Part shown: in pieces, positions 4,019-31,100 of the stretch
Numbering within the stretch: the first letter of the stretch is position 1
How the letters are laid out: each line of letters begins with the position of its first letter
Origin: a virus
Taxonomy: Duplodnaviria > Heunggongvirae > Uroviricota > Caudoviricetes
Length of the DNA: 52,139 nucleotides
IMG/VR virus record: IMGVR_UViG_3300023118_000008
Location: 92,188-144,326 of that record
Reading direction: 5' to 3' (one strand)
Notes under the pieces: generated by a model
The model's input: only the letters and a program-made list of their open reading frames with translations
What the model was told of the DNA's origin: nothing
Database searches by the model: none
Translations under genes and position numbers: made by a program

Positions 4019-4050
4019 CAAATATACTACATTAATATTTAATATCCAAA
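4019..4050 (-). promoter_or_regulatory. Bacteroidota sigma-A type promoter for the RHH-tnpB operon
   Basis: TTTG (4050-4047), 20 nt, TATATTTG (4026-4019). Confidence 0.85.
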
Positions 4051-10384: not shown

Positions 10385-13300
10385 CTATTCTTCTGCTTCA
10401 TCTTCTGCCAAAACTGTAGCGAATGTCCAATTCTCAAGAGTACTCTTATTAAAAAAGTAATAGGTGTCCTTAGCAGAATTAAAATCCCTGAACCTGTTGT
10501 AATCCCTAATAAACGGTAGATTTTTTGACATCCACTTGTACCTAACCGTACTACCTGCATAAGTTCCTCTATCTATAATGTTTGAATCGGCTAAATCTAG
10601 TATATTTCCTAAATCTTTGAATTTCTCGGCACTAATAAGGGGGTTTGAAAGCATTGAGTCTAATTGCATAGGAAGAGAAACGGTAGAAGAAGTTTGTTCC
10701 ACTGCTACTCTTAGAAGCATATATTCGCTCCAAGCAAGTAGAAATCCAGGATCTTCGGGGTCATCATCTGACATATTGGCAAGTAATATTACAGCCACTG
10801 CTAATGCGTTCGCTACTGCAAGCTCTAAACCAGTTCTGCGTAAGTTCCTAACTGAGACTTCATCTGTCATATACTCTTGCCAAACTTTCTTTAACTCTTT
10901 TGGTTTTAGAACATTTTGAGCTAAGCTGTTTGTCATATTGAACACAGTATTCCATGAACCTTGAGTCCAAACCCCTTCGGAAATATTGTAGCTTCTACTT
11001 TTCAGTTTGTTCTGCGCCGCAACTTGCCACCACGAGCTATGTAAAAGGAAGAAATTTGCAATTGCGTTCCTGTTCGCCAAACTCTTCTGATAACTTGGAA
11101 TTTGTGAATCGACACGTTGAACCGCCGAAGCCGTCCTTGCATTAATTGCCTCTAAAATCAAGTCTACCTTCTCTACAGCTTCCTCTTCACTTATATTCAA
11201 CTGCTCAGAAATACCTTTGTAATTAGGCGCAATAACTCCATCTTTTACAGGAATCAGATCTTTGAACAAAGGTTGTTTTTCCCAAAGTAATCTGTCATCT
11301 TTTCCATTAATTTCTTTGAACTGTCTGTATGTTACTACTTCTCCGCCGAAAACTCTATAGTCATAAATAACAGAAAGCATGACAGTACTAGTTACAGGAT
11401 AGTTTCCAGCACTATGTAAGGCAGAAGATGATTTCAAAAGGCCTCTCCCTGCTCTACCGATGTAAGAGTTTTCAAATCTTTCTGTCAAGTTATACAAACC
11501 AAATCTTTCACCATAAACCGAGATCTCAGCTTTACCATTATATTTCATTATCTCTCCTATCTGCTGACTCCCTTTCCTTGCAAATTCTTTCTGAGCCTCC
11601 TTATAAGCCGTCTTATCTAAAACTTCTCCTACAGCCACTTCTAAAAATTCTTGGGTCTTTCCTTGTAGGGCTGAAGTCAAAGGTACCGTTACACCCGCTA
11701 AATTTGAGAACCTTACCCAGCTGTTGAAAGTCCTTGCCAGTTTTCCTAAATCTACTTTTTTCCCTAAAACTGTTACTTCTTGGCTGAATGTTTCTTTTAC
11801 GCCATAGAAATTTGATTTTAGAAAAGAGTTGAACATCTTGTAGGTGTTTGTTGCCTCAGCTTTCTTGCCTGGATAATCTCTTTCTTTGGATAATATGAAA
11901 TCCTCTAAAACTAGCATATCTGAGATGTTTTCTCTTCTTGCTTTGTATAAAGCCGACTGTTGGTTGAACATTGCATAAGACAATAGTAATTCGTCTGTTA
12001 CGTCCGTTTGGTCTTTTAGTTTTCTTACCCCGTAAGTTGGTACTGACAATAATGAGTCCCCTTTTTTCGCCAAATTTCCTGATATATCTTGCCCTAAATC
12101 TGCTTCATCCTCCCTGATGCCTGTCATATCGGAAGCGATTTCTTTTAGGGATTTTAACTTATTTGAACCGTCAGTCAGTCTTCTTGTCGCGCTCCTTAAA
12201 AACTGAGGCAGTTGATACCTGTCATGTGTTGCTTGAATACCATAATTTTCCAAGCTTTGATCATTATAATCCAAAAGTATTTTTCTCGCTTCAAACTCTT
12301 GAATGTTTTGAGTGGCGTTTCCTTGCTCGTCTATTCCATATCTTTTATAATACTCATCATTTCTTACAGAGTTTTTATAGGCTTCTGTGTATTGGTCTCT
12401 TTGCGCGTCACGATTTTCAATCCACTTAGGATTTACATTTGCCATCGCGTCATAATAGCTCCAACTTGGCTTTACTTCTACTATTCCGCTTTCAATGAAG
12501 TCTAAAACTGCTCCTGATTGGTTTTCAGAGACATTTCTTTTTAGTTCCTCGTAAGCTTCTGTAAATCCTTGAGGCTCTGTTCTCTTATAGTATGGTAAAA
12601 GTTTTCTTCTAGCGAACTCTGCTAAGACATTATCGTAATCTGATCTCCCTTCTATAAGATTAGTCAAAAAAGGTGTCATTATAACAGATTCTCCTTTTTG
12701 AAGTCTTTGCAAGTTTCTTCTTAGTGACTCTATACTGCTTCTTCCATTTGAAGTTACATGTTTTAGAATGAAATCAATCTCTTGTGGGCTGTTTGAAGCT
12801 ATTTCGTTAGATTCTAAGTCTTTTCTGTAACTTTCATTAACTGTTGAAACTGATTGGATTTCTGTTGCTTCTTGTTCTTCTAGAATGTTTCTTGCCTCGG
12901 CGGTCTGAACTTCTAAAATAGATTGGGCATCCCTTATTGCAGATGTTTCTGTTTCATACATTGCAAAAACATCTGTTTCGGAAGGATTATTTAAGTTTTT
13001 ATTTCCGCGAATAATTGTAGAGATTATTGATTGCTGTTCTCTGATGTTTTGTGCAAATTCTAAAGCTTCGGGTGAGCCCAATTCTAAAAGTCTTGCTACC
13101 AAAGAGTTATTAGGATCAAAATTATCCCAAAATTCTTGAGTAAAATCTGTTGTTGCATTGTTATTTAAAAAGTCAAACTTCTCTTGCTCTGTACTTAGGC
13201 TGTTTAATTCGTCTAGAAACTTTTGAGGAATTCCTTGAGAGTTAGAATTAGCCTTGTAGAATTCAGAGTTTAAAAGCATTAGGTTTTGCAATCCCACGAC

Positions 13301-15940
13301 TTTCTGAGCTTCTGAGTAGTCTAAATCTGATAGGTCTTCATTAGCCTTTAAAAAGTAAGTAAATTTCTTTAAACCTCTATCGTAAACTTCAATAACTCCT
13401 TTTTTCAATTTTCCATCCGAATACCTTGGATTTGCTTCTTGGAGTTTTTGTTTTGTCAAGTTTTTTATCTCCGCGATATCGCTTGAAGTAAGTTCACCTT
13501 GTTTTTTTATTTCCCCGATTTGTGAACGGTATAATTTATCCAATTGCAAGACATCATCTGGAATAGAAGTTCTATCAATCGTTACTCCGTTTGTTGTGAT
13601 AGAAAAGTTTTGGAGCTTCTCTAAATATTTAGGGTCAAAGTAAGATTCAAATCTTTGAGTAAAAGTCTTTCTGAATTCCTTATCTAGATTGGCAAGCTGT
13701 CCTGAAATCTCATCTCTGTTTTGAGTTTTCTTATTGATATCTTCTTGACTCAATTCTTTATTTGCGGTTAATTCTCTTTGTAGGGAATCATACTCGCTTT
13801 GCATTGAATCAATCTTCTCTTGAACCGTGTCCTTATTTAAGTTTTCTCCTAAAATCGTAGATAAAATTTTAGCTTTTTCTGTATTATCAACTTCCAAAAC
13901 TTTTTGAGGATCTTTCTCATTGATTATTCCTCCATTATAGATAAGCTTTTTTAATGTTGTGGGGATTTGACTCTCTGTTAATCCTAAAGCTTCCAAACGG
14001 TTTAAGAAAGGTTTGGTTTGGTTTTGGTGCGTTGTTCTTTCTTGGTATTGTGTTCTTTCAATTATTTCTCCCGCCAAATTTAAAAGACCATCTCTTGAAT
14101 TGATTAATCCTCCTAAATGGGCATGTAACCAACCTGTGTCAGCTTCTGCTGTTCTTGAAATATTGTCGATATATTCACGATATTTATTAGCCTGTTCAGG
14201 AGTCATATTATTCTTTCTGATGACTCTCTCAACAATCAAATCTCTTGCCTTTGTATTTGTTGCGGGAACTCTTCCTTCAATTGTAGAAATCTTTTGTAGG
14301 ACATCATCGATCTGTTTTGCAATAGCCTTGTCATTAATGCTTTCTCTGATTTGTCTTAGCATTGGAGCAAGTCTTGAAACTGTTGATTGAAATACTCCAT
14401 TTTCTTCTGACGTGAAATGTCTTGAATTTTTATCGGCGTTTTCTAAAGATTTTAAAAGAGAATTTGCTTGAGAATTAGCAACCGCTACCAATTGTAATGT
14501 TGAATTTTTCAAGGAAGCTTCGTCTGTCAGGGCAATTGTCTGCTTTAATTTGTTTAGGGTATTTTTATTCGCCGAGGAATTTCTTAAAGCGTATTGCTGA
14601 TTTAAAAGAGTTTCATAAGACTTCTGAATAGTTTGGGCTAAAGCTGTACGTCCTGTTGCATTATAGAGCGTATAAGACTTATTCTCTTTATTCCTGATAT
14701 CTACATCCAAAGAGTCATTCATAAGGTCTCTATAGACTTGTTCGGTGAATGTTTCTAATTGGGTTTGATAGTTCGGCTGAAAGAAATCATAAACACGGTT
14801 AAAGAAATCTTGAAAGAAGTTTCTTAAAGTTGCAACAATACCGCCTTCCAAAGTCGGTTCCGATTCCCTTGTAAAATTATCTTGCAGGGAATTAGCTAAA
14901 ACCTTCCCTAAAATTTCTTCTCTGACAGCATCTTCTAAGGCTTCACCTTCTAAAGTTTCCGAGTAGATTTCAAAATATTGTTCTGCAAATTCTGCCCACT
15001 CTTTAGTTCTATGGACATTGCGTTTTTGGTTTGCAATTTCTTCTTGATTTTTTGTGGCTATAATAAAATGGCTCACTTCTTCAATCAAGTCTGCTTGACT
15101 TATGACACCGTCTTTGAAAGCTACAATGTTATTTGTTAAATCCGTTAGAGCTTTTGCTGAGGGCTCATAACCGTTCTTTTTAGCGTATTTTTCCGCCCAC
15201 TTTTCAATAGAAGTAGTCTTTACACCTAATTTATTTAATAGCTGTAATAGTTTTTCTTGAAGCTCGTTTTCAGGTATGATTTGAATTTCTTCCAAAGCAG
15301 AATTATTGGCATTTGTTTCCAAGGAAATTTCTTCCAAAGTCTTTATGAAAACAGCTGTTGGTTCATCAAATCTTTGAGTAAGCTGATTGAAGCTTTCTGA
15401 TTTGGGAACTTCCTGTCTTTCTTTGAAAGTAATATTATAATCTTGCCCTACTAAAGCTGAAAATGCTCCTTTATATCGTTTTGAAACTGTTCTGGCTACA
15501 TCCGCGTAAACTGCTTTCTCTTGCTCGTTATTCCCTGTCACTTCCAAAAATTTAGACCCATCAACATCTAAAAAAGAATTTCCTGTTAGGATGTCTTCTT
15601 TGATTAGAGAATTTAAAAGGCCTGAACGCGTCTGAGGATTTATTGTAGCGTCGATTGTCATAAAAGATTTTCCATTTCCAACCACCTTTATTTCAGAATT
15701 AGGTTTGCTATTTTTGAGAGCCTCTTTTAATGTCTGGAACTCTTCTCCTTGGTTTTGAAAACTGATTGGAAATTCCTGATTGCTATTATCCGACAAAAGA
15801 TTTGTATACCCTATTAGAGCTTCTTGGAAATTTTGTATATGAGGAATATTTAATATTTGATTGAAAACTAAAGAAGGTCTGCCATCAGGAGCATTTACTC
15901 CAATTTGTCTGCCGTTCTTATAAATTATTTCACAAGCCAT
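10385..15940 (-). CDS. Giant putative internal virion (ejected cargo) protein, 1851 aa, with a zincin-like segment
   Basis: Size, helical composition and position after the tail block; DLIEEVSHF...REEILG motif; hydrophobic segment near the C-terminus. Confidence 0.75.
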   Translation of the reverse strand: MACEIIYKNGRQIGVNAPDGRPSLVFNQILNIPHIQNFQEALIGYTNLLSDNSNQEFPISFQNQGEEFQTLKEALKNSKPNSEIKVVGNGKSFMTIDATINPQTRSGLLNSLIKEDILTGNSFLDVDGSKFLEVTGNNEQEKAVYADVARTVSKRYKGAFSALVGQDYNITFKERQEVPKSESFNQLTQRFDEPTAVFIKTLEEISLETNANNSALEEIQIIPENELQEKLLQLLNKLGVKTTSIEKWAEKYAKKNGYEPSAKALTDLTNNIVAFKDGVISQADLIEEVSHFIIATKNQEEIANQKRNVHRTKEWAEFAEQYFEIYSETLEGEALEDAVREEILGKVLANSLQDNFTRESEPTLEGGIVATLRNFFQDFFNRVYDFFQPNYQTQLETFTEQVYRDLMNDSLDVDIRNKENKSYTLYNATGRTALAQTIQKSYETLLNQQYALRNSSANKNTLNKLKQTIALTDEASLKNSTLQLVAVANSQANSLLKSLENADKNSRHFTSEENGVFQSTVSRLAPMLRQIRESINDKAIAKQIDDVLQKISTIEGRVPATNTKARDLIVERVIRKNNMTPEQANKYREYIDNISRTAEADTGWLHAHLGGLINSRDGLLNLAGEIIERTQYQERTTHQNQTKPFLNRLEALGLTESQIPTTLKKLIYNGGIINEKDPQKVLEVDNTEKAKILSTILGENLNKDTVQEKIDSMQSEYDSLQRELTANKELSQEDINKKTQNRDEISGQLANLDKEFRKTFTQRFESYFDPKYLEKLQNFSITTNGVTIDRTSIPDDVLQLDKLYRSQIGEIKKQGELTSSDIAEIKNLTKQKLQEANPRYSDGKLKKGVIEVYDRGLKKFTYFLKANEDLSDLDYSEAQKVVGLQNLMLLNSEFYKANSNSQGIPQKFLDELNSLSTEQEKFDFLNNNATTDFTQEFWDNFDPNNSLVARLLELGSPEALEFAQNIREQQSIISTIIRGNKNLNNPSETDVFAMYETETSAIRDAQSILEVQTAEARNILEEQEATEIQSVSTVNESYRKDLESNEIASNSPQEIDFILKHVTSNGRSSIESLRRNLQRLQKGESVIMTPFLTNLIEGRSDYDNVLAEFARRKLLPYYKRTEPQGFTEAYEELKRNVSENQSGAVLDFIESGIVEVKPSWSYYDAMANVNPKWIENRDAQRDQYTEAYKNSVRNDEYYKRYGIDEQGNATQNIQEFEARKILLDYNDQSLENYGIQATHDRYQLPQFLRSATRRLTDGSNKLKSLKEIASDMTGIREDEADLGQDISGNLAKKGDSLLSVPTYGVRKLKDQTDVTDELLLSYAMFNQQSALYKARRENISDMLVLEDFILSKERDYPGKKAEATNTYKMFNSFLKSNFYGVKETFSQEVTVLGKKVDLGKLARTFNSWVRFSNLAGVTVPLTSALQGKTQEFLEVAVGEVLDKTAYKEAQKEFARKGSQQIGEIMKYNGKAEISVYGERFGLYNLTERFENSYIGRAGRGLLKSSSALHSAGNYPVTSTVMLSVIYDYRVFGGEVVTYRQFKEINGKDDRLLWEKQPLFKDLIPVKDGVIAPNYKGISEQLNISEEEAVEKVDLILEAINARTASAVQRVDSQIPSYQKSLANRNAIANFFLLHSSWWQVAAQNKLKSRSYNISEGVWTQGSWNTVFNMTNSLAQNVLKPKELKKVWQEYMTDEVSVRNLRRTGLELAVANALAVAVILLANMSDDDPEDPGFLLAWSEYMLLRVAVEQTSSTVSLPMQLDSMLSNPLISAEKFKDLGNILDLADSNIIDRGTYAGSTVRYKWMSKNLPFIRDYNRFRDFNSAKDTYYFFNKSTLENWTFATVLAEDEAEE

Positions 15941-15941
15941 T

Positions 15942-16898
15942 TTATTGTTTTAAGTTTTTTAATATGTGGACTATTGTATCTATATTCCAACCATTTCCGA
16001 GCATTTCACCCGCTTTGTTTTTTGAAACTTTTTTAGTGTAATTATCAGGGACGGTTTGTAACCTTTCTAGTTCTTTCCTTGTAAATTTTCTAACAGTATT
16101 TTTATCAATAAAAAGCTTATGTTTATTGGAGCAGCCTCTGTCTAAAGTACCACACTTACCTGTCTGATAATATCCTCTTTGATCTTGACTTCCATTATTC
16201 TTACCTGACAAATCATATTGATAATAGTTATTTGTAAATATTCCCTCTTTTCCTTCTATGTTAACATGTAAATCAAGGGATGCTTCTTTTTCTATAATAT
16301 CTTCAATCACTATTCTTGAATCTATATATTCATCTATTTTTAAATTTGTCCAGTAATATCTAGGTCTGTTTTGGGCTGAAAAGTTACTAGAATTTATTAA
16401 CTCTCCTTTTACCTTCATAACTTCATCAAAAACATCTTTCCAATATTTCACCATCTTAACATTTTCTAATAAAAAATTAAGAGGTTTAATTTCTCTCATT
16501 AATCTGACAAATTCCCAAAATAAATAAGATTGCCCTTCAAATTGAAAATCTTCACTTTTTAGTAATAGATAAGTTTCCAAATCTGTTATTTCAACCCCTT
16601 CTTTTGTAGTCAATCCTTTTCTCTTTCCTGCAAAACTCAAATTTTGGCAAGGACTTCCTCCAATTAACAAATCTATTTTTCCAACTTCAAAAACTCCGTT
16701 ATCTGTAAAAAGTTTTCCTTCACAGTACTTTAAATTTCTGACATCTCCTATTTGAATAGTATTTGGGTAGTTATCCATAGCAACTGCAATTGCATCGGTA
16801 TTTACTTCAGATGCATAATAATTTGTAATTTTGTGACCTCCTCTGTTTAAGGCAATTTGTCCTCCTGATTTTCCGTCAAACAATGATAGTACATTCAT
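15942..16898 (-). CDS. DNA cytosine-C5 methyltransferase (318 aa)
   Basis: Motif I LSLFDG, IV GGSPCQ, VI LENV, VIII QNRPRYYW, IX/X RKFTRKELERLQ...GNGW. Confidence 0.95.
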   Translation of the reverse strand: MNVLSLFDGKSGGQIALNRGGHKITNYYASEVNTDAIAVAMDNYPNTIQIGDVRNLKYCEGKLFTDNGVFEVGKIDLLIGGSPCQNLSFAGKRKGLTTKEGVEITDLETYLLLKSEDFQFEGQSYLFWEFVRLMREIKPLNFLLENVKMVKYWKDVFDEVMKVKGELINSSNFSAQNRPRYYWTNLKIDEYIDSRIVIEDIIEKEASLDLHVNIEGKEGIFTNNYYQYDLSGKNNGSQDQRGYYQTGKCGTLDRGCSNKHKLFIDKNTVRKFTRKELERLQTVPDNYTKKVSKNKAGEMLGNGWNIDTIVHILKNLKQ

Positions 16899-16914
16899 AT
16901 TTATATATTTTCAA

Positions 16915-16944
16915 CAAATATAGTAAACTTAATTAACAATCAAA
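16915..16944 (-). promoter_or_regulatory. Probable host-type promoter for the methyltransferase
   Basis: TTTG (16944-16941), 18 nt, TATATTTG (16922-16915); spacer slightly short. Confidence 0.65.
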
Positions 16945-19230
16945 ACTTTCTTTTAAAATATTTTTTGCTTTTGTGGAATCTTTAACATTTGAATTGTCTG
17001 ACATGCTTGCTTTCAAGTCTAAGTTGTATTCGTTGAATTGGGGTTTAGGATTTCCAAAGGTGTTATATTGTGACTTGTTTACCATTTGTCTTTTGAACAG
17101 GCTTTTACCGTTTTGATTAAATATGTTTTCCCATAAGCTTCCGTCTTGTCGTTTAGTAAACCTTTCTTGGCTATCCGATATTAAGGTTTCTGAATCTACT
17201 ATTGTAGGGCTTTGTATTAGGGGTGCCATTTGTGGGTTGTTTACATAGTAATCTCTTTCTTTTTGGGAGATATCTGGATTTTCATCTAAAGTAGTTTGAT
17301 TTAGATTTGGCATTTGTTTTGAAATCAGGGAATACTGCCTTAAATTTTCATCTGCTAATTCTTCTACTGTTGAAAGTGTTAAATCATCTGTATATTTTAG
17401 ATTTATTCCTTGCTCGTTAATTTCAAAGTTTGAATAGAAATTTAACCACATTGGAGAGTTCTTTTTCTTTTCTCTCAGGCTTTTTATATTAAATTCTGCC
17501 ACGAAATCATTTGTAAGGTACTCGTAGTTTCCTATGAAAGCTGTGTCATTTATACCATCATTTATCCCCTCATTTATACCATCAAATCCTAAAATAGTTT
17601 TGAAAAGATTTATTTTTTCTGCTGTTTCTCTCTGCGGAGATTCTATTCTTAGGGCTTGTCTTTGGTTTTCTTGTTTTGTAAGGCTTGGGTTGTAATAATA
17701 AGCGATTTCATAAAGCTCTTCTAGAGTCTTATCGTTTACTTGGACATACAAGTTTTCTGATTTTTTTATCGCCCCGATTTGATTGAAAACTTCACCCTCG
17801 CTCAAAGCTGTTCTTAGATAAATATAATCTCTATCATTAGGTTGTCTTATAGCTTTTGTTTCTTGGATTTGATTGGGAAAGAACTCTGTATAAAGTTTGG
17901 AAAATGTTGCTAAGTTTTCTTGCACAGGATTTTCCATAACACCCCCCAAAGCATTTAAAAAGGGTTTTAAAATTGGATTATCTGCCTGGTCTTTTATTCC
18001 TATAACATCAATACCCATTTTCAAAGCCTCATTCTCTATCTTATCCAAAGCTCTATAAGTCTCTCTTGGATTCTCTAAAAGAACTTCATCTGAAATATTT
18101 GTTATATTAACTATTGCGCTTATTGCTTTATATGGGCTCTTTAATATCGTAGCTGAAATTGCCAAACGATCACCTAGATTAGGCTCTACTATTAGTCCAT
18201 CAACATCTGCCAAAACTCTTGCTTTTACAAATGCTTGTGCTTCCTCTAAGGTTATGAAAGGATTTTCTTCAAACATATCTTCCTCCACGCCCGCAATTTC
18301 TTCCATTAAGTCTTGCTTTAGGTGGTTTGGGTTTTCATATAGAGCTTTTCCAAAACTTCCAATAGTATTTGATTTGAGTAATTGTTCTTGTGGTATTTGT
18401 TGTTCTGTAACTAAGTCAAACTCTGTATTCTGAAATGCTTCTAGGCTTTCTTTGATTTGATTTTGCAGGCTTGGTGATTTCAAAATTCTATCAATTTCGT
18501 ATTGTGAGTACAAGGACTGCATTTTTTGAGGAACTGTTGTAAAGAAACCTTGCTCATCATAAAACACTTTGTTCATTTCCGCTTTCAAATCTCCTTGAAA
18601 TCCTAAAGACAAGTTTTTTAGCTCAATTTTCTCTTCTGTATTTAATTCTCTTTGGTTTCTATTTTGATTTCTTAAGAATTCCAAAACGCTTTGCATTGAG
18701 GGCTCACCATTTGGATAACTGTTTTGAAGTATAAATTGGTATCTTCCGTCTGGTATCTGTTCAGCTAGATTGTCTCTCACAAGGGACTCCCATACATTCA
18801 AATCATCTTGACTTGAAGCGTTATCGCTTTTTAACTGTATTCCTCTTTGAAATAAGTCTTTAGCCACTTGTTTATAGAGACTCTTTCCATATCCTTTGCC
18901 TTTGAAAGCATCATATATAGTTATCATATCTACCCTGTCCCCTTTTATTCTCAGAGTACCTATTCTTTTTCCTTTAATTGTAGGAATATAAGAAATAGAA
19001 TTTCCTTTGATTTGTCTGGAAAGTTTTACATCATTTTGATTCACTGAATATAATAAAGCATTTTTAGCTCTATTTACTGTTTCAAACGCCTCAGACTTGG
19101 AAGCCTTATAAATTTCTAAAGCTTCTTCTTGGGTAAATCTCTCCCTTAGGTCTTGGAAAAGCAATGACGGAGTATCTTGATCCGTCACTACTGTTACTTG
19201 CCCATTCTCTCTTATTATATTACAGCTCAT
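16933..19230 (-). CDS. Putative internal virion protein with a GNAT acetyltransferase-like domain (765 aa)
   Basis: RVDMITIYDAFKGKGYGKSLY (GNAT motif A-like) at about aa 98-120; N-terminus similar to the 1851-aa protein. Confidence 0.7.
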   Translation of the reverse strand: MSCNIIRENGQVTVVTDQDTPSLLFQDLRERFTQEEALEIYKASKSEAFETVNRAKNALLYSVNQNDVKLSRQIKGNSISYIPTIKGKRIGTLRIKGDRVDMITIYDAFKGKGYGKSLYKQVAKDLFQRGIQLKSDNASSQDDLNVWESLVRDNLAEQIPDGRYQFILQNSYPNGEPSMQSVLEFLRNQNRNQRELNTEEKIELKNLSLGFQGDLKAEMNKVFYDEQGFFTTVPQKMQSLYSQYEIDRILKSPSLQNQIKESLEAFQNTEFDLVTEQQIPQEQLLKSNTIGSFGKALYENPNHLKQDLMEEIAGVEEDMFEENPFITLEEAQAFVKARVLADVDGLIVEPNLGDRLAISATILKSPYKAISAIVNITNISDEVLLENPRETYRALDKIENEALKMGIDVIGIKDQADNPILKPFLNALGGVMENPVQENLATFSKLYTEFFPNQIQETKAIRQPNDRDYIYLRTALSEGEVFNQIGAIKKSENLYVQVNDKTLEELYEIAYYYNPSLTKQENQRQALRIESPQRETAEKINLFKTILGFDGINEGINDGINDTAFIGNYEYLTNDFVAEFNIKSLREKKKNSPMWLNFYSNFEINEQGINLKYTDDLTLSTVEELADENLRQYSLISKQMPNLNQTTLDENPDISQKERDYYVNNPQMAPLIQSPTIVDSETLISDSQERFTKRQDGSLWENIFNQNGKSLFKRQMVNKSQYNTFGNPKPQFNEYNLDLKASMSDNSNVKDSTKAKNILKESFDC

Positions 19231-19436
19231 ACTAATATTTTAAACACTATAAAACCTATTATTCCTAAAATACTTATTACTTGAGTTATGGCACTTCCAG
19301 TAAATACAAACCTGTCTTCTAAAACATATTTTTCAGACTTACCTATTTTAGTCCAACTATATATTGGGTCAGCTAAAAGTAATCCAAAAAGGGGTATAAA
19401 AGGTACTGCATATTTTAACTTATCTTTAAATTTCAT
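19227..19436 (-). CDS. Small membrane protein (69 aa, 2 hydrophobic segments)
   Basis: ORF track; hydrophobic stretches. Confidence 0.75.
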   Translation of the reverse strand: MKFKDKLKYAVPFIPLFGLLLADPIYSWTKIGKSEKYVLEDRFVFTGSAITQVISILGIIGFIVFKILV

Positions 19437-19437
19437 A

Positions 19438-19632
19438 TTATTCGCCTAATGGCATTCCTGTTAATAAATATCCTCCTTTTAGTATAGACTCTTTTTGTTC
19501 TTTGTCGTAGATATCGAAAATAATTACATCTCCGTTTTCTTCTACTCTTGACACTATGTAAACAACACCGTTTTGTTCAAGTGTGCAGTTTGTTTTTAAC
19601 TTTCCATCAAAATATTTGCTTGATTTCTCCAT
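19438..19632 (-). CDS. Hypothetical protein (64 aa)
   Basis: ORF track; tiling. Confidence 0.75.
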   Translation of the reverse strand: MEKSSKYFDGKLKTNCTLEQNGVVYIVSRVEENGDVIIFDIYDKEQKESILKGGYLLTGMPLGE

Positions 19633-19634
19633 AC

Positions 19635-20108
19635 TTATAATTTTTGCCCTGGTTGTAGCGTAAATTTATATACCAATTCTCCATTTTCTTGTGCTTCTTT
19701 CATACCTTTATACAATTCTGTTGACTTGTTCATAGTTTCTAAATCCTGAATTTCTACCCCTGCTGTGACTAAGACTTTTAAGTTGTAGAAATTATTCAAA
19801 CCTGCCTCTTTCAGTATTTTTCTTACTTCTTTTTCTGTATGAAGTCTAGTTGGTAAAAGAAGAGGTACTTCGTGATTAACATAATTTTCTGTTTTTCCTT
19901 TTTCAAGATGTTGTTTTACATATTTCTCAACAATACGTGAATTAATTTCTTCTGAGAAATCCTTATGTTCTTCTAGCTTTTGGTATAACTCGCTGTCTTT
20001 TTCTATCTTAGGTAATATTTCTTGAATAGTACTTATAGCTCCAAAATTAAACCATGTGGTCTCATTGTCCTTTTCCGAGTATTGTAATTTTGTTGATTTT
20101 AATTCCAT
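19635..20108 (-). CDS. Hypothetical protein (157 aa, MELKSTKL...)
   Basis: ORF track GTG start 20153 lies inside the promoter/inverted repeat; ATG at 20108 preferred. Confidence 0.75.
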   Translation of the reverse strand: MELKSTKLQYSEKDNETTWFNFGAISTIQEILPKIEKDSELYQKLEEHKDFSEEINSRIVEKYVKQHLEKGKTENYVNHEVPLLLPTRLHTEKEVRKILKEAGLNNFYNLKVLVTAGVEIQDLETMNKSTELYKGMKEAQENGELVYKFTLQPGQKL

Positions 20109-20121
20109 TTTTATCTTAATT

Positions 20122-20169
20122 AATATTAGGAAGCAAATATAATCTAAGTACACTTAACTTCCTAATATT
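20122..20169. promoter_or_regulatory. Perfect 12-bp inverted repeat enclosing a TATATTTG -7 element
   Basis: AATATTAGGAAG (20122-20133) and CTTCCTAATATT (20158-20169); minus-strand TATATTTG at 20141-20134; inner TAAGT-AC-ACTTA. Confidence 0.8.
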
Positions 20170-23100
20170 TTAACATTTAGTATTATTATTACCTGATTTC
20201 AGAATATCTTCCTTAGGCTTTACTTGTTTGTTGATGTTGTCTAAAATACCAAAAAGTATTCTGACTCTTTCAATTTTTTCATTTCCTATTGCGTCTCTCA
20301 GAATCTTGTTTTTAGAAAAGTCTACTTTAAAAGCTTCTCTTAGAATTCTTATGTTATGAAGTTTATCGAGGTGTGAGTCCCCTTCCAACATTGATTCCTC
20401 ATCAAAAGCGTCTGTATAAGTATTTTCAATAATATCTCCTCTTGAATTTATATAGGTTGTAGAAGCATTTCTTATGAAATCATTATAAAGCTGTTTTGCC
20501 AAGGTATCTAATTCATTTTCAACCGAAGTTTTTACATCCGAGGTATCAAAAGTAGCCTCTTGGTTAAAAAGCATATTCTGGATATCTATTCTTACTTTTG
20601 GCGCATTGATTACTTGGTCTAAGTTATCTGCATCAATATACATCTGAGCATCCACTAAAAGATTTGCCTTATTATAATCTTGTGAAGCTATTTCATCTGC
20701 TGTCGAAAAAATCAAATGTTCTTGGAAAGCTGTTCTGATTCTTTCAAGGTTTTCATCCGTAACTTCTTGCGGTAGAATTTTTTCAGTCCTAATGCCTTCT
20801 TGATTAATCAGAGCGTTTAAGTTCTTTGCAACTTCTATTGGGCTTGTTGCTGTCTCTAAAGCATTTTCCACCATGTCTAATCCTCTTTGCCCCAAAGGAT
20901 TTTTATTTAGAAATATTGGCAAAGCTACATAATTTCCCCCTCTTTTAACAACTATGATAGGCATTTTTCTTTGAGGGTATTGTTTAGAGATTTTAGAAAC
21001 ATAAGAGGTATTTACTTGCGGTAGGTCTTCTGATGTTACGATTTCGCCGTTTAAAACAAATCCTTTTGTCAAAACTTTATCTAAAGATGTTTCTGTGAAT
21101 GGTCTTGATTCTAACTGTCCATCTTCTGAAATAAAGAATTGAGGGCTTCCTAAAAACACTGCTGAAACTGTTGAGGTCGCTTGCAAATCTACTTCATAGC
21201 TGTCTTGTATTGCTAATTCAAAAGCCTTTTCTCTTAGAAGTTTAAAATTATCAGGGGATACTCCTCTTTCTCCTTTTAGGGTTGAAATTCTTTTGCCTTT
21301 AGATACTAAATAAATCTTAATACCATCTGTTAAAGCTTTTCGGTTTTCTTCATTAGGGAATTTTTTATACTTGTCTAAAAGTTGTTTTGAATAGGCATCT
21401 TGTCTTCCTATTTCAAATCTTATAGGTGCGCCCTGTTCTAAATTGTAGATTTCATCTGCTTGAATATCTTCAAAAAAGTCTGATGGCTTCTTTACATATT
21501 CTGAACCATTAAAATAATATAAATCTGCATAAGTCCAACTTGTAGAAGCACTTCTTACTACTAACAATGGGATGTTGTCAAAAACCTCGCTTCTCATTTT
21601 CAAGATATTCCCATTCTCTACTGAAAACATTAATCCGCTTTCTGTTGTAACTATATCTCCAATTGCGATTTGCGATATGTCAATAGGCTTGTCTTTTCTC
21701 GTAACTTGGAAAGGTTCTCCTATGATATTTACTAGAGATTGTGCTGATATGTGATGCAAAGTTACAGAACCGTCTTTATTTCTTTTTATTGTGGCGTTTC
21801 CTGTGACATTTTGCGCCAAAGTATAATCATCTAATTTTTCTCCTGCTTGTGATTCTTGAGTCATAGCATAGGAATCATCTTCTGTGATTTCAGTTATGGT
21901 TTCCTGCTCTGAAATATTCTGTTGTTGCTGTTGAATCAATTCTGCAAGGTCAGCCATTGTCAAACCTTCCTCATTTATAAAACTGTCTAGAACTTTCCAA
22001 TTTGATAGTTTTTCTCTCAACTGTTCAAGTCTGTCTAGATTTACTATTGAAGGCTGGGTGAATATCTCTACAAGTCTTGGATTAGCTGTAAGTGTACCTT
22101 TACCATCAAGCTGGATAGTAACCAAATCTCCTTCTATCTCGGTAACCGTTCCTTGGTCAGATAAGGTAGAAACTCTTTGCCCCACTGAAAGTTCAGAGAT
22201 GTTTTCTACTTCTCTTCTTTGGGGACTTCTTTGTCTCAATAGGTTTCTTTCTTCTTCAGTAAGTGATTCTAAAGCTAATCTTTCAGCTTCTGATTCATTA
22301 TTTCCATTGGATAGAAGTGTTTCATATAAGTTGTCAAGCTTTTGATAAAGTTGTGCTTTTTCACCTGTTTCTCCTCTTAATAATGCTTGGTATTCGTCTA
22401 CTTCTGCTTGCGTAGGCTTCTCCAAAAGAAATTCATCTGTGGAAGTTCCTATAAAAGTCAGGGAATTATTAGATCTTGAAACTAAATTAGCAAGCCTTTC
22501 TCTTAAATATTGAAGTTTGGTTTTAGCTGTTGGTAACGGTACAACTGGAAGCATCGGCTCCCTTTTCATAAAAGTATCTATCTCTAGCTTGTTTTCATTA
22601 TAGAAAGCCTGCTCTTCTTCTGATAAGATATCGCCTCTTCTCCTTTTATCTATAATAGACTCATTTGAAATAACTGCATCTCTGTTACTCATTTCAGAAA
22701 TCTCACTTAAGCCTCTTACTGCTTCTTGAGTATAATTGCCTAGAATTTCTGATAGCCATTCTTTTGTAGCAGAGTCTAAATTTTTGTTCTTTTTTAAAAC
22801 TTTTCGCCCGACTAAAGTATTAATATTATCTATATTCACTTTACCGTCCCTGAAAGCTAATACAGTTGACTGATAGGCTCCAAATGTTTTTCTAGAGTTG
22901 TTATACTCTTCTAAAATTGCTTCGAGTCTGGCGGAATTTTCAGGATTTGAAGCTTTTATTGCATTCAAAACTTGGTCTAAGTTTTTAGTGTTGGAGTCAA
23001 GATTTTTTAAGTCCTCTACACTGATATTTTGAATATCTATACCTTGATTTAAAGAAGTTCCCGTTGTTTGTTCTAAAGTTTTATTGTTTAAGTTTATTTC

Positions 23101-25389
23101 ATCTGCAAATTGTTGCAAGCTTATCTCATTAGCTGAAATTAAATTAGTAAGTTTTAAAAGCCTGTCAGATAATCTTAAGACTTTATTTCCCGTATCAATG
23201 TCACCTTGAGTAGTTTCTTGAATATTCCTCAACTGTTCCACTAGCCTTTGTCTTTGCTCTTCTAAAGATTTGCTTCTATTTATGGCAATATTTACCTGAT
23301 TTCTTTTTTCTTGTGTTACTGTTTCTAAACTTGATATTGTATCTAAAGCCTTAACTTTTTCATAATCTAAAATCTGAGCCATTTCTTGAACAGCTTCTTT
23401 CATTATTGTATGGGAACGTTGCCCACCCATCATTGTGAAAGCCAAACTTTGAATTAAGGCTTCTTGAGTATTATTTGCACCCAAAGATGAAAGTTGGTTT
23501 TCAGAATCTAGTTCTTGTATTCCTGCTATGGGGTTTCTTCCTATGATGTATTCAGCAAACTGTCTATTCTTTTTGAATGATTTTGCAACCTCTGAAAAAG
23601 CTGTTACTTGTTGTTCCTTCCAAGTAGTCAAATCAGTTTCAACTCCCATTTCTGTAAGCTGTTCTTGTGTAACTGTACCTAAAGCTTTTTGTATATCTTG
23701 AGTCACATCATCTACTGAATCTCCTAGTTGGTGCCTGTTGTTTAATAGAGAGAATATAACTCCATCTTGCGCAATTCTAGCTTCTGTCAAGTTTCCTTTA
23801 GCTTGTGCCTCTTCTGACTGCTTATTGAATCCATTTACACGGTTCATCATCAGGAAATGTTCTGACAAGGCTTTTGAAGTATAGGTTTCGTTTAATTTAG
23901 AACGATTTTCAAATTCTTGTACTTGCCTGTTTACACCACCTCTTGTATTACCTGTACCAGCTTCTCCTAAGATACCAATAATTATTCCCACTCCATTTTC
24001 AACCCAGCCTTCTTTTGAGCCATATTGATGAGAAATGTTTTCATATAGTGCTCCCGCCAAATCAAAAGAATCTTTTGTGTTATTGGTATCATATGCGTGT
24101 TCGAGCCATTTACCTGCCGTAGCTGACGTAATAGACTGTCCTCCCTCTTCGTATAAACCTTCTGTTATGGCATTTTGCACAAAAGGCATTACTTTTCTAT
24201 TTATAGATTGCAGTCTAGACGGCGTAGCTTTGCCTATTCCGTATAGAGCTCGATTATACATATCTCCAAATCCTGTTTTTACAGGAGATTTTAAATTGAA
24301 AACTCTTCCTAGGGTTACTAGATTTGCACTTCCCACTAAAGCCATATTGACTCCAAAAACTGCATTTGCAGAGGAGGTAAGATTATCTTGGAAAGCTGTT
24401 ATCTCTTCTTGTTCAGGCTGTCTCCCATTTTGCTCTTGAAAGTTTCTATAGAAGTTTTCTTCCTGTTCCTTTTTATACTGTAGGGCTTCCACAGACGCTT
24501 CATATCCTGCCGAAGTCATTGTAAATCTCAAGGTGTTTAAAGCATCCGCTGCTTGACCAAATCTTACAGCTCTGTCTACATTCAATGCTCCTGGAATTGC
24601 TAAGCTGTTATCAGCTACTCTTGCGACATCTTCTCCGACAGATAATGAATTTTTTAGAAGTCGTGAGAACTTAGAAGTACCGTTCGCTACTCTTGCTAAT
24701 CCTGCCGATTTTGTTGACCATCTCGCAGCTGTTGTTGCTAAAGAAGTTCCTCCCGTAGCCCAAGCCCAAATACCTTCTGATACGATTGCTCCTGCTGTAA
24801 AAGACAACCCTCCTAAAACTTTATCCGCCCAAAAGTTAGAAGTGAATAATTGTCCGCCCAAACCTTTATCTGTTTCTTGTTGAGTATAATAATTTGGAAG
24901 ATTATAGTTCATCTTGGTATCTAAATCCCCAAGCCAGTTTGAAAAGTTGTTATCATAAACTGAGTCAAATTTCCAATCTGCTATTCCTGCTCCCACACCA
25001 TACACAACTCCTGCTGTACCTCCTACAACCGCATTTAAAGTTTTTCCTCCAAACTTAGCTAGTCCATTAAGCCACTTTTCTCCTGTGCCTTGGCTTTGAG
25101 CATAAAGTTCGTTATTATTTGCTCCTGCTTTATAGGTATCATATTTAGCTATGTAAGTACCATCATTAAGTCTTGCATAGGCATCGTCTACATTATAGTT
25201 TGTACTCTCAAAAGTCATCTTCTGAGGTGTTGCCACAGGTGCTTTGTAAAAGAAATTATTATCTGTTTTTACATCACTTATTATTCTATTTGGCGAATTG
25301 ATAATGGCAGGGGGCATTTCAGCTTTTATTCTGATGTCCTCTTCCATAGATTTTAAAGCGGGTGTCAATATAGGATTTTTATCTTCCAT
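20170..25389 (-). CDS. Giant putative internal virion (ejected cargo) protein, 1739 aa, with hydrophobic Gly/Ala-rich N-terminal segments
   Basis: TLNAVVGGTAGVVYGVGAGI, LSFTAGAIVSEGIWAW and GVGIIIGILG segments; long coiled-coil region; locus position. Confidence 0.75.
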   Translation of the reverse strand: MEDKNPILTPALKSMEEDIRIKAEMPPAIINSPNRIISDVKTDNNFFYKAPVATPQKMTFESTNYNVDDAYARLNDGTYIAKYDTYKAGANNNELYAQSQGTGEKWLNGLAKFGGKTLNAVVGGTAGVVYGVGAGIADWKFDSVYDNNFSNWLGDLDTKMNYNLPNYYTQQETDKGLGGQLFTSNFWADKVLGGLSFTAGAIVSEGIWAWATGGTSLATTAARWSTKSAGLARVANGTSKFSRLLKNSLSVGEDVARVADNSLAIPGALNVDRAVRFGQAADALNTLRFTMTSAGYEASVEALQYKKEQEENFYRNFQEQNGRQPEQEEITAFQDNLTSSANAVFGVNMALVGSANLVTLGRVFNLKSPVKTGFGDMYNRALYGIGKATPSRLQSINRKVMPFVQNAITEGLYEEGGQSITSATAGKWLEHAYDTNNTKDSFDLAGALYENISHQYGSKEGWVENGVGIIIGILGEAGTGNTRGGVNRQVQEFENRSKLNETYTSKALSEHFLMMNRVNGFNKQSEEAQAKGNLTEARIAQDGVIFSLLNNRHQLGDSVDDVTQDIQKALGTVTQEQLTEMGVETDLTTWKEQQVTAFSEVAKSFKKNRQFAEYIIGRNPIAGIQELDSENQLSSLGANNTQEALIQSLAFTMMGGQRSHTIMKEAVQEMAQILDYEKVKALDTISSLETVTQEKRNQVNIAINRSKSLEEQRQRLVEQLRNIQETTQGDIDTGNKVLRLSDRLLKLTNLISANEISLQQFADEINLNNKTLEQTTGTSLNQGIDIQNISVEDLKNLDSNTKNLDQVLNAIKASNPENSARLEAILEEYNNSRKTFGAYQSTVLAFRDGKVNIDNINTLVGRKVLKKNKNLDSATKEWLSEILGNYTQEAVRGLSEISEMSNRDAVISNESIIDKRRRGDILSEEEQAFYNENKLEIDTFMKREPMLPVVPLPTAKTKLQYLRERLANLVSRSNNSLTFIGTSTDEFLLEKPTQAEVDEYQALLRGETGEKAQLYQKLDNLYETLLSNGNNESEAERLALESLTEEERNLLRQRSPQRREVENISELSVGQRVSTLSDQGTVTEIEGDLVTIQLDGKGTLTANPRLVEIFTQPSIVNLDRLEQLREKLSNWKVLDSFINEEGLTMADLAELIQQQQQNISEQETITEITEDDSYAMTQESQAGEKLDDYTLAQNVTGNATIKRNKDGSVTLHHISAQSLVNIIGEPFQVTRKDKPIDISQIAIGDIVTTESGLMFSVENGNILKMRSEVFDNIPLLVVRSASTSWTYADLYYFNGSEYVKKPSDFFEDIQADEIYNLEQGAPIRFEIGRQDAYSKQLLDKYKKFPNEENRKALTDGIKIYLVSKGKRISTLKGERGVSPDNFKLLREKAFELAIQDSYEVDLQATSTVSAVFLGSPQFFISEDGQLESRPFTETSLDKVLTKGFVLNGEIVTSEDLPQVNTSYVSKISKQYPQRKMPIIVVKRGGNYVALPIFLNKNPLGQRGLDMVENALETATSPIEVAKNLNALINQEGIRTEKILPQEVTDENLERIRTAFQEHLIFSTADEIASQDYNKANLLVDAQMYIDADNLDQVINAPKVRIDIQNMLFNQEATFDTSDVKTSVENELDTLAKQLYNDFIRNASTTYINSRGDIIENTYTDAFDEESMLEGDSHLDKLHNIRILREAFKVDFSKNKILRDAIGNEKIERVRILFGILDNINKQVKPKEDILKSGNNNTKC

Positions 25390-28090: not shown

Positions 28091-28103
28091 TTTTTAGTTT
28101 TTT

Positions 28104-28138
28104 AAATAAAAATGCCCACTTATTAATGTTAAGCAGGC
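28104..28138 (-). terminator. Intrinsic terminator after the 1054-aa gene
   Basis: GCCTGCTTA-ACATTAA-TAAGTGGGC (two G-U pairs) then ATTTTTATTT. Confidence 0.7.
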
Positions 28139-28169
28139 AAATTTAAGGATTTAATTTGATTTGAACAAA
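28138..28169 (-). promoter_or_regulatory. Bacteroidota sigma-A type promoter for the 903-aa gene and downstream cargo
   Basis: TTTG (28169-28166), 20 nt, TAAATTTG (28145-28138). Confidence 0.8.
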
Positions 28170-28185
28170 TATGTTAATTGAATAT

Positions 28186-31100
28186 TTATCGAGAAGCTAC
28201 TTTTGGAGTATTATATCCCGTCTTATATGATTTATAGTTTTGACTTTGCTGAAATTTAGTAAAATCTTGAGGAGAAAGGTAGGTGAAATCTCTTCCCTCT
28301 TGTGGCTGATTTCTTCCTGTGAAATACTCAGGTCTGTTATTCATCCATACTTTCTTATAGTCTCCAACTATTACTCCTCCGTCAGGCGTATATCTATTTG
28401 TGCCCGAAGTAATATCAGCAATCATATCGCCCTCAAGGTTCAAAGGTCTTCTTTGTGGTATTGACTGATTGAGGTTTGGATTTTGATTACCTTGTTGTCT
28501 GAAATACTCTCTTGCAAACTCCTCACTGAATCCTGTTGCCTGAGCTACTTCCCTTGCTTGTTGGTCTGTCATAGGAATTGCACCCTCTTCAAATTCATAG
28601 ATGTATCCGCCGTCTTGTTTATAATTAGAGACATATTGCGCCCTTTGTTCAGGTGTCATATTCTGCCACATTTGTTGCTGGGCTTGTAGTTCAGGGTTTA
28701 CTTGATTATATTGCCTAGGGTTTGAGAAGTAAACATTTGAACCATCTGTCTGATAATTAGGAGTCATTGCATTAGTCAGGTTCAGGTTATTTACATCCAT
28801 CCAATTTTGTTTGTTTTGAAGCTGTTCATTTATTAAGTATCTGCTCCAAGCCTGTTCTTGATTGTCAAGGGTTTTGAATAATCTCTGCTCATAGTTTTGT
28901 CCAAGATTTATATTCATCAACTGCTCTTTATCTCCTATATTGGCATTATATTGGTTTGCCCTATTTACAGCCTCCGCATTATAAATATCTGTTTCTGCTA
29001 TAGCTTTATTAACAGACTGTTGTGTTGTTCCTAAGTTATTTGCTGTTAGAAACGGTGCGAGGTTAGGGTTTGATAAAAAACTCTGCTCGTTAATATAATT
29101 AGTCTGATTGTTTATCGCTGCTATTGAAGCTTCGGGCGTTCTAAGAGTAGGTTCAATTCTGTTAAAATTAACTTGGTCATTTCTAGGTATCAGAGCCGCG
29201 CTTGGAGTAAGCCCTTCTACAACAGGTAACATCGGTATAATATTTCTTCCTCTCTGTTGTTGCTGATTTTGAACTTGCGAATTATTAGTCGTTGCTACTA
29301 AGTCTTCCGCAGGTATGTTCTGATTTTGTGCAGTACTTGTAAATGGCAACTGGGGTGCTGTGATTGCTTGATTTTGAGGCTGTGCTTGTGCTAAAGTGCT
29401 GATAGTTGCTTGAGGAAATCTATAATCTACTTTACCATCTGCAAATTGGTTCAATATAAAATTACTATCTAAAGGAATTGCCTCTTGAATTGCCTTTTTT
29501 TCTTCAGCAGTGAAACTATTAGGTTTTCTATTAGTGTCTATCCCAAGTCCCTTTAAATCTGCTTTTCTGTCTTTTAGTAGTATTTCCATACCCTTGTTTG
29601 TTATAGGCTGTTCATTAAAGTAGCTTACAACTTCTTCAGGTGCATTTTCAACAAACCAATTTTGAAGTTCTGTCCAATTTTTAGTCAGGTTTCCTTTTGT
29701 AAGATTAATGTTTGGAGGTTGGACTCCTTTTGACTCCGCTAAAAGATTGGCAGATTTTAAGAAATCCCCTATTCTTGCACCCGCTGTTCCTCCTGCCTGC
29801 ATCTGGGGTTGTTGTTGTGACTGGGAAGCTTGGATAATTTGGGAAGCTTGGTCTTCGGAGTATCCCATTGACAATAAGTTGTTAAGTATCTCTTCGATAG
29901 GGGCTCCCTGAGCTACTGCTTGCTGTACTTGAACTATTATGTCATTAGGGTTAATTGCTTCTTCCTCTGTAGCTGGTGCCAATGTTTCTCCACCTTCTTG
30001 CAAATAGCTTGTTTTTTGAGATTCTTGCTTATCAAAAATTGTTTTGAAAGCCTCTTGCTGTTGAGTATTTAATTCTTCTTTTTCAGCTTCTATTCTAGCC
30101 GTTTCTTCTTGTACGAAGTCTAAATTTATTTGCTTGGTATCTGTTTCATCCATTCTTAGAGTTTCCTCTGTTTGATTCACAAGTTTTTCACCCTCTTCAA
30201 TGTTTTTTTCTACGCCGATTTTCTTTGAGTATTTGTCTAAGACATCCGCAAAAGTATTTTTAGCTTTTAGTTTAATATCTAATTCTTTTGATAGCTCTTT
30301 TGCGTTTTTTGCCCCTATTTTAGTGTGGTCAGATAAAACTTGTGAGCCTTCAGATAGATTAGTTTTAATCCCTCCTTTTTCGTGGGTTTCTCCAATTGCT
30401 TTTTGAACTTGACCGTCTTTTGCATTCAATACAAACTCGTTTTTCTCAATTTCTGTTGTCGGATTGGAGGAATCTGTGATATATTTCCCACTTAGGAATT
30501 TACCTACGCTAACAGAGCCTCCGTCTTCCATATAATTAATTACTCCGCCTTCTTGTAGGGGTGTTGAATTATAGATGGATTGATTATTTTGTTGATTTAA
30601 TAAATCTCTTTGATTTCTCCCTAATCCGTAAGCTGAAAATCCTTGCCTGGCTGTGCCTAGCAATCCTTTACTCAATCCTAAGATACCTAAGCCTGTATTG
30701 CCTTGTCCTAGATTGTAAGCCCCATAACTAAAGGCCGTAGACGTATCAATTCCTCCAAATGGGTTAAACAACCTAAAAGGCTGATTTGTTTGTTGATTAT
30801 TGTAATTTGTTTCAGCATTTAAAGCTTGATTTCTTGTTACTCCACTCCCTGCCGTATTGAACTGATAACCTCCTTGCGTATTTAGACCAGATACAGTTGT
30901 TTCTGGAATTTTGTAGTTTGTACTTATTGCTCCTAACTGAGGTGTAGAATCGTCGTCGTAAGCTGTTAGTGGTGGTGCCTGAAGAGTTTGAGGCTGATTT
31001 TGATTCATCCATTGCTGTCCCATGCCTTGTGCCACATAGTCAGGAATACTAGATTCTTGGGGGTAAACTGCCATTTGATTTGTCTGCGGGTTCTGGTTTC

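Follow-up and report, generated by a model that had tools for sequence, protein, structure and literature searches.

Among the phages of the human gut, crassviruses are the most abundant, and relatives of theirs are common in the sea. In crAss001, gp47, gp49 and gp50 were identified as virion cargo by mass spectrometry of virions; the cargo was not resolved in the map of the particle, and equal copies of the three proteins (e.g., six each) were given as an illustration of the capacity of the cargo space (PMC10172136). In some phages the three cargo proteins are one polyprotein (bioRxiv 10.1101/2020.03.07.982082), and the gp50 cargo of phage N4 has been described as beads on a string (PMC13434306). 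For both crAss001 and N4 it was argued that the cargo crosses the tail channel unfolded, and the structure papers on both raise the question of how megadaltons of protein are packed and injected (PMC10172136; PMC13434306). Here we analyzed a stretch of 52,139 nucleotides (nt), hereafter the window, which is the end of a 144-kb virus record judged to be 98% complete (IMG/VR record IMGVR_UViG_3300023118_000008, positions 92,188 to 144,326). Three of its genes, encoding proteins of 1739, 765 and 1851 amino acids (aa), can be recognized by homology as the cargo chain of a marine crAss-related, Lightbulbvirus-like phage, packing in the virion being known from the relatives. We found that these three proteins are almost devoid of cysteine (Cys), and that the few Cys that they have lie only at the ends where consecutive proteins of the chain face each other.

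The nearest cultured relatives of this virus are the Cellulophaga phages phi17:2 and phi4:1 (Lightbulbvirus, 145 kb), at ~25-28% identity, and more distant sequence matches extend to crAss001 and other crassviruses. The 1739-aa protein, the first member of the chain (hereafter the head), matches phi17:2 gp039 (E 3e-85) and crAss001 gp47 (E 3e-23), and the 1851-aa protein, the last member, matches phi17:2 gp036 (E 3e-153) and crAss001 gp49 (E 6e-9); their PHROG matches are phrog_32390 and phrog_37651, and the homologues of chain proteins in phi17:2 and phi4:1 are annotated as structural. When the trio is set beside the crassvirus trios (crAss001 gp47-gp50-gp49; phi14:2 g067-g066-g065), homology links the head with gp47 and g067 and the last protein, over its C-terminal part, with gp49 and g065, and the pattern of Cys at the ends is the same. 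The middle members differ, as an RNA polymerase with a DFDxD motif (g066, PDB 6VR4) stands in crAss001 and phi14:2 where the window has a 765-aa non-polymerase protein, hereafter the link. No DFDxD or DxDGD motif was present in the six cargo proteins of the window, and phi14:2 gp66, whole or as its catalytic part, gave no match in the 144-kb genome, a search that a very divergent polymerase could escape. A 98%-complete genome with no detected virion RNA polymerase of the gp66 type bears on how early transcription is started.

A preliminary description of the window, made from the sequence alone, had counted only four Cys in the 4,355 aa of the trio, all of them terminal, and translation of six minus-strand genes confirmed this count. 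The head (20170-25389, minus strand) has a single Cys, which is its final residue and closes the C-terminal tail ..SGNNNTKC (tail type A; 20173-20232, minus strand), with the Cys codon TGT at 20173-20175 followed by TAA. The link (16933-19230, minus strand) has two, residue 3 (codon 19222-19224), within an N-terminal module (N-module; residues 1-55, 19066-19230, minus strand), and residue 765, its final one (codon 16936-16938), at the end of the type-B tail ..KESFDC (16936-16995, minus strand), with a variable body between module and tail. The last protein (10385-15940, minus strand) has one, residue 3 (codon 15932-15934), again within an N-module (residues 1-55, 15776-15940, minus strand). 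All of these codons were checked. The remaining 15 open reading frames (ORFs) of at least 150 aa in the window contain 112 Cys in 7,271 aa (1.54%), and at this rate 67 Cys would be expected in the trio where four were observed (Poisson P ~7e-24); the probability that all four fall by chance within the 12 end positions that face a junction is ~6e-11. The outer ends of the trio lack Cys, as had been noted, and in the relatives too it is only the ends facing a neighbor that have one. Three cargo proteins encoded upstream (903, 1054 and 933 aa; 25379-34148, minus strand), described as appearing Cys-free, have no Cys by translation, whereas the muzzle-like protein, which had been called Cys-rich, turned out to be average in this respect, with 38 Cys in 2445 aa (1.55%).

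The terminal Cys are kept in homologues at 25-30% identity. Among the best 120 of 361 homologues of the head, which reach down to ~26% identity, none lacks a Cys 0-5 residues from the C-end, and in 119 this is the sole Cys (121 Cys in 209,244 aa, one internal). For the last protein we sampled 38 homologues (1843-3119 aa, 25-87% identity), 37 of which have a Cys at position 3-6 and 36 no further Cys (39 Cys in 81,650 aa, two internal); the lone exception starts inside the N-module and is probably a cut sequence. The 765-aa family has seven full-length members, and in each of them Cys is confined to position 3 and the final residue. Approximately 25 genomes follow the rule, including those of phi17:2, phi14:2, crAss001, DAC15, crAss002, the Suoliviridae, an epsilon phage and a Leptolyngbya phage. 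The counterparts of the three upstream Cys-free proteins in six metagenomic loci (L017-L022) likewise have no Cys, save a lone one at position 5 in L022, and these three proteins are probably ejected as well, without linkage through Cys.

We compared the junctions of the chain across phages, drawing junction pairs mostly from individual contig look-ups. A head with a C-end Cys, any links with Cys at both ends and a last protein with an N-end Cys were found in this order in phi17:2, phi14:2, crAss001, DAC15, IAS, crAss002 and the Leptolyngbya phage Lbo-JY46, in csAssE-Sib, cr118_1, cr1_1, cr109_1, cr11_1 and cr3_1, and in the metagenomic loci L011, L016-L022, L030, L036 and L038. In phi17:2, gp039 ends in its Cys, the two Cys of gp038 are residues 4 and 516 of 517, that of gp036 is residue 3, and gp040-042 have none. 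The arrangement in phi14:2 is the same with a virion RNA polymerase in the middle, as g067 ends in Cys, g066 has Cys 3 and 2179 of 2180 residues, and g065 has Cys 3, while in crAss001 the corresponding residues are Cys 2339 of 2341 in gp47, Cys 5 and 2404 of 2412 in gp50, which has one internal Cys in addition, and Cys 5 in gp49. In the Steigviridae the head, RNA polymerase and last protein are all separate, with a Cys pair at each break. The Intestiviridae (crAss002, cr11_1, cr3_1) have the polymerase fused to the last protein, and the Cys pair is found at the sole break, behind the head; the Suoliviridae (cr118_1, cr1_1, cr109_1) have the head fused to the polymerase, and here the pair is found at the sole break ahead of the last protein. 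In Lbo-JY46, a 1552-aa protein ending in Cys is followed by a 2748-aa fusion (Lbo_f), which includes a segment resembling the 765-aa link and has its sole Cys at position 4. Thus all seven of these two-protein phages keep one pair of C-end and N-end Cys, a point on which the preliminary description had proposed to judge the linkage. Where fused junctions were mapped by alignment, no Cys pair was seen, most clearly in cr1_1, whose 4551-aa protein has Cys only at 4026 and 4548. Three annotations in these genomes deserve comment. The crAss002 gp33 (L008 9270-22007) has the motif MSC at residues 33-35 and in reality probably starts 32 codons further downstream; IAS gp055 and gp056 (L006 11019-20001) overlap, as if a single protein had been split by ambiguous bases; and the last protein of csAssE-Sib (L023 19175-25577) is split into 281 and 1885 aa in what looks like an annotation issue.

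These comparisons indicate that the terminal Cys track the breaks in the chain rather than its domains, and that the trio corresponds to a giant multidomain "polyvalent" protein which different phages appear to make as one, two, three or four polypeptides. Further indications come from the long members of the 1851-aa family, in which the N-module is followed by 300-1250 aa of inserted effector domains and then by the core, still with a single Cys, and from the LPD23 domain (PF18838), which occurs in a free link with the two Cys (P0172) and also as a fusion, behind the N-module, in last proteins with a single Cys. Phage N4, an unrelated podophage, offers a one-chain analogue. Its virion RNA polymerase gp50 (3500 aa, with N-terminal, polymerase and C-terminal domains) and the co-ejected gp51 and gp52 have no Cys in 4,294 aa. 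In T7, likewise an unrelated podophage, gp15 and gp16 (together 2,065 aa) are free of Cys, and the only Cys of gp14 is residue 2. We found no mention of the Cys-freeness of these N4 and T7 ejection proteins in PMC13434306 or PMC8954989. As the N4 and T7 proteins are Cys-free and the fused junctions lack the pair, poverty in Cys is general to ejected proteins and end Cys are specific to split chains. N4 gp50 has no sequence relation to the window proteins, though as here a giant cargo has to leave through a narrow tail; being a single polypeptide it needs no links, and it has no terminal Cys.

The N-ends of the 765- and 1851-aa proteins, which had been reported to align, share a common module of ~55 aa. 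Across 32 sequences M1, C3 and V15 never vary, and S23, F26 and Y45 hardly do. A model of the N-module of the 1851-aa protein made with AlphaFold 2 (mean predicted local distance difference test score of 79) consists of a beta-hairpin (residues 4-8 and 11-16) and helices 24-30 and 38-54, with the Cys just ahead of the first strand. When a profile of the module was searched against cluster representatives, it gave 635 matches among 1.8 billion (153 at E <=1e-10), and these begin at residue 1 almost always. Among 139 new matches, 134 have a Cys within the first eight residues, and 49 of the 57 long ones have exactly one Cys. The module stays N-terminal despite the effector domains of 300-1250 aa inserted behind it. 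On these grounds it is, as far as sequence and model can tell, a real domain with a conserved small fold. The profile of this lineage barely detects the N-ends of crassviruses. A Foldseek search of the model against the PDB gave no match, and in sequence searches of the PDB the three trio proteins found nothing and the N-module profile found only spurious matches to repeat proteins.

The C-ends are more varied. The preliminary description had proposed that the two Cys-ending tails share a K-x-K..ILK motif; this is true among close relatives but is not general, and the two tails of the window are of different types. In the AlphaFold 2 model of the last 100 aa of the head, a confident helical domain is followed by ~15 less confident residues that make up the flexible tail. 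Across diverged loci, we observed that head tails of the form [SN]G..N[TSI].C come before MxC[NTR].. modules and type-B tails (..F[DE]C) before MxC.II[YF]K modules (crude Fisher P 2e-4), that tails resembling G[IV]I[EQ]..EC come before MxC.Y...YT.EE N-ends at five of five junctions, in links of unrelated sizes, and that type-C N-ends follow I/L-x-x-x-C tails in five of five cases. This association of tail and N-end types is a lead only, since it comes from ~27 junctions of related phages and from hand-drawn regular-expression classes that misfile some obvious cases. A predicted complex of the 100 C-terminal aa of the head and the 70 N-terminal aa of the link scored 0.01 with the own folds of the two parts uncertain, and speaks neither for nor against binding.

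The idea that the 765-aa protein is an insertable linker found support, as it belongs to a wide set of proteins, many of them 81-930 aa long, with an N-module, a variable cargo and a C-terminal Cys. Numerous N-module proteins, 81-813 aa in length, contain no Cys apart from those at position 3-6 and within the last 0-3 residues, and these we take to be links; those without a C-end Cys may have been cut at contig ends. Loci L017-L021, L030 and L038 each encode a head, one link and a last protein, and L016 and L022 have chains with two links; L011 has the same order, but the locus is truncated on its upstream side and shows no more of the preceding protein than its Cys-ending C-terminus. The body of the 765-aa protein gave GNAT-like matches below the cut-off (E 0.007-0.009), its C-terminal part matches phrog_29175 ("virion structural protein"), and a Pfam scan of the three chain proteins of the window returned no significant domain. 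In relatives, links carry Kinase-PolyVal (PF18762) or LPD23, and last proteins carry ART-PolyVal (PF18760), LPD23 or a nucleotidyltransferase (PF01743) with HD (PF01966); the presence of these PolyVal and LPD domains would place the chain proteins among the polyvalent proteins. The 765-aa protein thus looks like one of many swappable links that carry effector domains by way of the same adaptor ends. What sets this lineage apart is the non-polymerase middle member, the recognizable N-module with hundreds of relatives, and swappable links as small as 81 aa.

Taken together, the pattern raises the testable hypothesis that separate cargo proteins, which have one Cys per facing end and, over as many as 3,000 residues, no other, behave as one thread. 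That the ends meet and are joined is the simplest account of lone thiols that occur at facing ends, are missing from outer ends and are lost with the break. We therefore think it rather probable that consecutive cargo proteins are joined end to end by a Cys-based link, and place most weight on a disulfide. This is the obvious chemistry because crAss001 virions use intersubunit disulfides (PMC10172136), the strict removal of all other Cys in the marine members agrees with an avoidance of wrong pairs, and a thread joined at its very ends would be linear. We infer that in the assembled virion the tail of each piece would dock on the N-module of the next, bringing two thiols together to form the disulfide, and that the pieces would become one linear thread of head, link or links, and last protein. 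With the rest of each protein free of Cys, no wrong cross-links would arise and the narrow tail channel could be crossed unfolded. A link at the extreme ends, leaving stubs of 0-5 residues, would keep the thread linear and able to pass a channel a few nanometres wide. A single signal, for packaging or ejection, could then be enough for all pieces; they would be loaded in equal numbers and exit in gene order, and the reducing cytoplasm would cut the links and free them. The last protein has a conserved acidic tail (..EDEAEE, ..EEEE or ..EEK; window 10385-10450) in nearly all 38 homologues, which could be the trailing end of the thread. Every prediction of the preliminary interpretation, in which the cargo is concatenated through docking and a disulfide or other Cys-based link, held where it could be checked computationally; the interpretation is supported, and the support is comparative, not chemical.

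Several considerations weigh against this reading. Virions are assembled in a reducing cytoplasm and the gut is anoxic, which leaves only the packed capsid or the time after release for a disulfide to form. As each end has a single thiol, pairing of N-end with N-end or of C-end with C-end is chemically possible, and docking alone would prevent it. There are also Cys at ends with no counterpart, namely an unpaired N-end Cys at position 5 (MKKRC.., MKKKC..) in a further cargo protein of L022 (3812-7084) and of Lbo-JY46 (L009 2626-4650), and tails of the NCLW type in L022, L029 and L031, for which no partner was identified. Gut crassviruses tolerate internal Cys, nine in IAS gp056 and six in crAss002 gp33. 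Finally, inherited gene order could explain part of the association between tail and N-end types, given ~27 related junctions and hand-made classes. The links that end in ..N[SC]CLW. (L022 18145-18531, L029 526-1560, L031 294-686) are followed by a Cys-free ORF of 119-122 aa and then by fibre-like genes.

Consecutive ends might instead be joined by a shared zinc or iron ion, possibly with several copies of the proteins meeting at one site. Such a metal clasp fits the same junction-specific pattern and is workable in a reducing cytoplasm and an anoxic gut; acidic residues often adjoin the C-end Cys (..E.EC, ..F[DE]C), and several copies of each cargo protein are thought to be packed per virion (PMC10172136). 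Nevertheless, each end offers a single thiol with no conserved histidine or second Cys nearby (M1, C3 and V15 being the invariant residues of the N-module and Cys the only one of the tail), and the strict loss of all other Cys in marine members is more readily expected if wrong disulfides are being avoided than if metal is bound. We consider a metal clasp unlikely. A similarly low probability attaches to the end Cys being anchors, attaching cargo to the portal, the inner capsid or the tail lumen, or forming homodimers of like ends. In crAss001, the cargo protein gp45 is bound to both portal and tail barrel, and many tail proteins are disulfide-bonded (PMC10172136); the lone N-end Cys in the further cargo protein of L022 and Lbo-JY46 and the NCLW tails with no visible partner also fit. 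Anchoring, however, leaves unexplained why the N-end of the head and the C-end of the last protein lack Cys, why C-end and N-end Cys are equal in number in nearly all genomes, and why both are lost together at fusions.

It is also conceivable, though with slightly less probability again, that the Cys have no linking role, in which case poverty in Cys would be a general trait of ejected proteins and the terminal residues would serve end stability, the context of start and stop codons or a processing signal. The counts for N4 gp50-gp52 and T7 gp15 and gp16, together with the single Cys at position 2 of T7 gp14, speak for this view. It accounts for the depletion but not for the Cys that are retained, which are confined to junction ends, are kept at ~25% identity across at least four crassvirus families, and float in position between 3 and 6 residues from the N-end and between 0 and 5 from the C-end. 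Neighboring chain genes may overlap or lie up to 8 kb apart with other genes inserted, a variation that argues against a signal at the nucleotide level; with spacing and Cys positions both variable, we rejected that candidate. Peptide ligation, by an N-to-S acyl shift at the C-end Cys and attack by the N-end Cys, would rebuild the polyprotein without an intein and would suit pieces that are a single chain in other phages and have Cys on both sides of each break, but it is highly improbable, as there is no intein or HINT domain, no Pfam match at the ends and no evident catalyst, the 2-5 variable residues before the N-end Cys would need removal, and the C-end Cys is often the very last residue.

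Three further candidates were also rejected. A split intein or trans-splicing would have no room for its halves, the sole Cys of the head being the last residue and the N-end Cys lying at 3-6, and no intein family was matched. An intron or read-through joining the genes does not agree with the overlapping genes of phi17:2 and the abutting genes of L036, each of which has its own stop and start. For a lipoprotein or prenylation signal we found no signal peptide and no CaaX context.

The proposed disulfide-linked thread can be compared with other systems that order or tether proteins. In modular polyketide and non-ribosomal peptide synthases, short docking domains at the termini order a multi-protein line, and matched types coexist. 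Those contacts are non-covalent and belong to enzyme assembly lines, and we found no sequence or fold relation to the ends described here. In AB-type toxins, an interchain disulfide is reduced on reaching the cytosol. The likeness is one of analogy only, a covalent tether that is stable outside and is undone once it meets the reducing cytoplasm of the target cell; the toxin disulfides connect side by side two chains of one cleaved precursor and involve no virion, whereas here the products of separate genes would be connected end to end. The polyvalent proteins of phages and conjugative elements string unrelated effector domains on one giant protein, as the longer relatives of the chain proteins do, with the difference that here the string is cut into genes with matched, Cys-bearing adaptor ends.

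If cargo proteins are indeed linked in this way, this would explain the equal loading of the pieces, provided that they are packed in equal numbers, and their ordered exit, as well as how different families have split the same giant protein at different places without loss of function. More tentatively, a matched docking code of at least three or four tail and N-end types, locked by a reducible Cys link, may order cargo proteins in trains of two to four members or more, such that any domain equipped with an N-module and a Cys tail rides into the virion and the host. A code of this kind, possible rather than probable at present, would be a natural plug-in system by which effectors are loaded and injected, and would be functionally equivalent to a polyprotein put together again after translation. 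The small links, which share this pair of ends, suggest a route by which new effector domains are recruited as cargo, and they might offer a means of loading phage particles with foreign proteins. We found no mention of the end-Cys rule or of disulfides in the cargo in PMC10172136, 10.1101/2020.03.07.982082, PMC7886860, PMC10136315, PMC13434306 or PMC8954989, and no description of the rule was found in a full-text literature search, most subscription papers being outside its reach.

Every gene of the region is on the minus strand. Read downstream, the order is the muzzle-like protein (2445 aa), the 933-aa protein with an SLT lytic transglycosylase domain, the 1054- and 903-aa proteins, and then the 1739-, 765- and 1851-aa proteins; strand and order (muzzle, small cargo, head, link, last) are the same in phi17:2, phi14:2 and L017-L022. 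The muzzle-like tail-tip protein (34072-41409, minus strand), with normal Cys content in contrast to the cargo, has a VWA insert and holds the position of phi17:2 gp043 and crAss001 gp44. Of the linear chain 1739-765-1851 proposed earlier, the order stands and recurs in relatives, but the genes are not adjacent in the window. The head and link genes are separated by 939 nt with three small ORFs (172/157, 64 and 69 aa; 19227-20153, minus strand), and the link and last genes by a C5 DNA methyltransferase gene (PF00145, E 2e-30; 15942-16898, minus strand), whose product has four Cys. In L036, a relative with 79% identity, the three chain genes lie back to back, with head and link 2 nt apart and the small ORFs absent, so we regard the methyltransferase gene, an accessory insert, and the small ORFs as insertions outside the chain. 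Other loci have Cys-rich homing endonucleases, TnpB, an AAA protein or methyltransferases scattered between chain members, and the junctions of the chain seem to be favored landing sites for mobile genes. L016 has a TnpB-like gene within its cargo chain (12126-13241). A conserved small ORF of 58-79 aa ending in ..R[IL]KK[PH]TN lies between head and link in four distant loci (L019 15685-15861, L020 15466-15660, L021 14811-15050 and L022 15442-15618), and L010 and L011 have a different ORF of 52-56 aa between the link and a type-C last protein.

Elsewhere in the window, two fibre-like proteins have Cys-dense N-ends (MCKKDCGCNSNNC.. and MDCKEKECKD..; 43522-45390 and 50157-52037, minus strand), and phi17:2 gp047 and gp048 have Cys-dense N-ends likewise. 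By analogy with the disulfide-bonded hub of crAss001, these ends may be anchors locked by disulfides or metal in the tail hub. A TnpB-like ORF of 393 aa (2709-3890, minus strand) adjoins the DNA polymerase gene.

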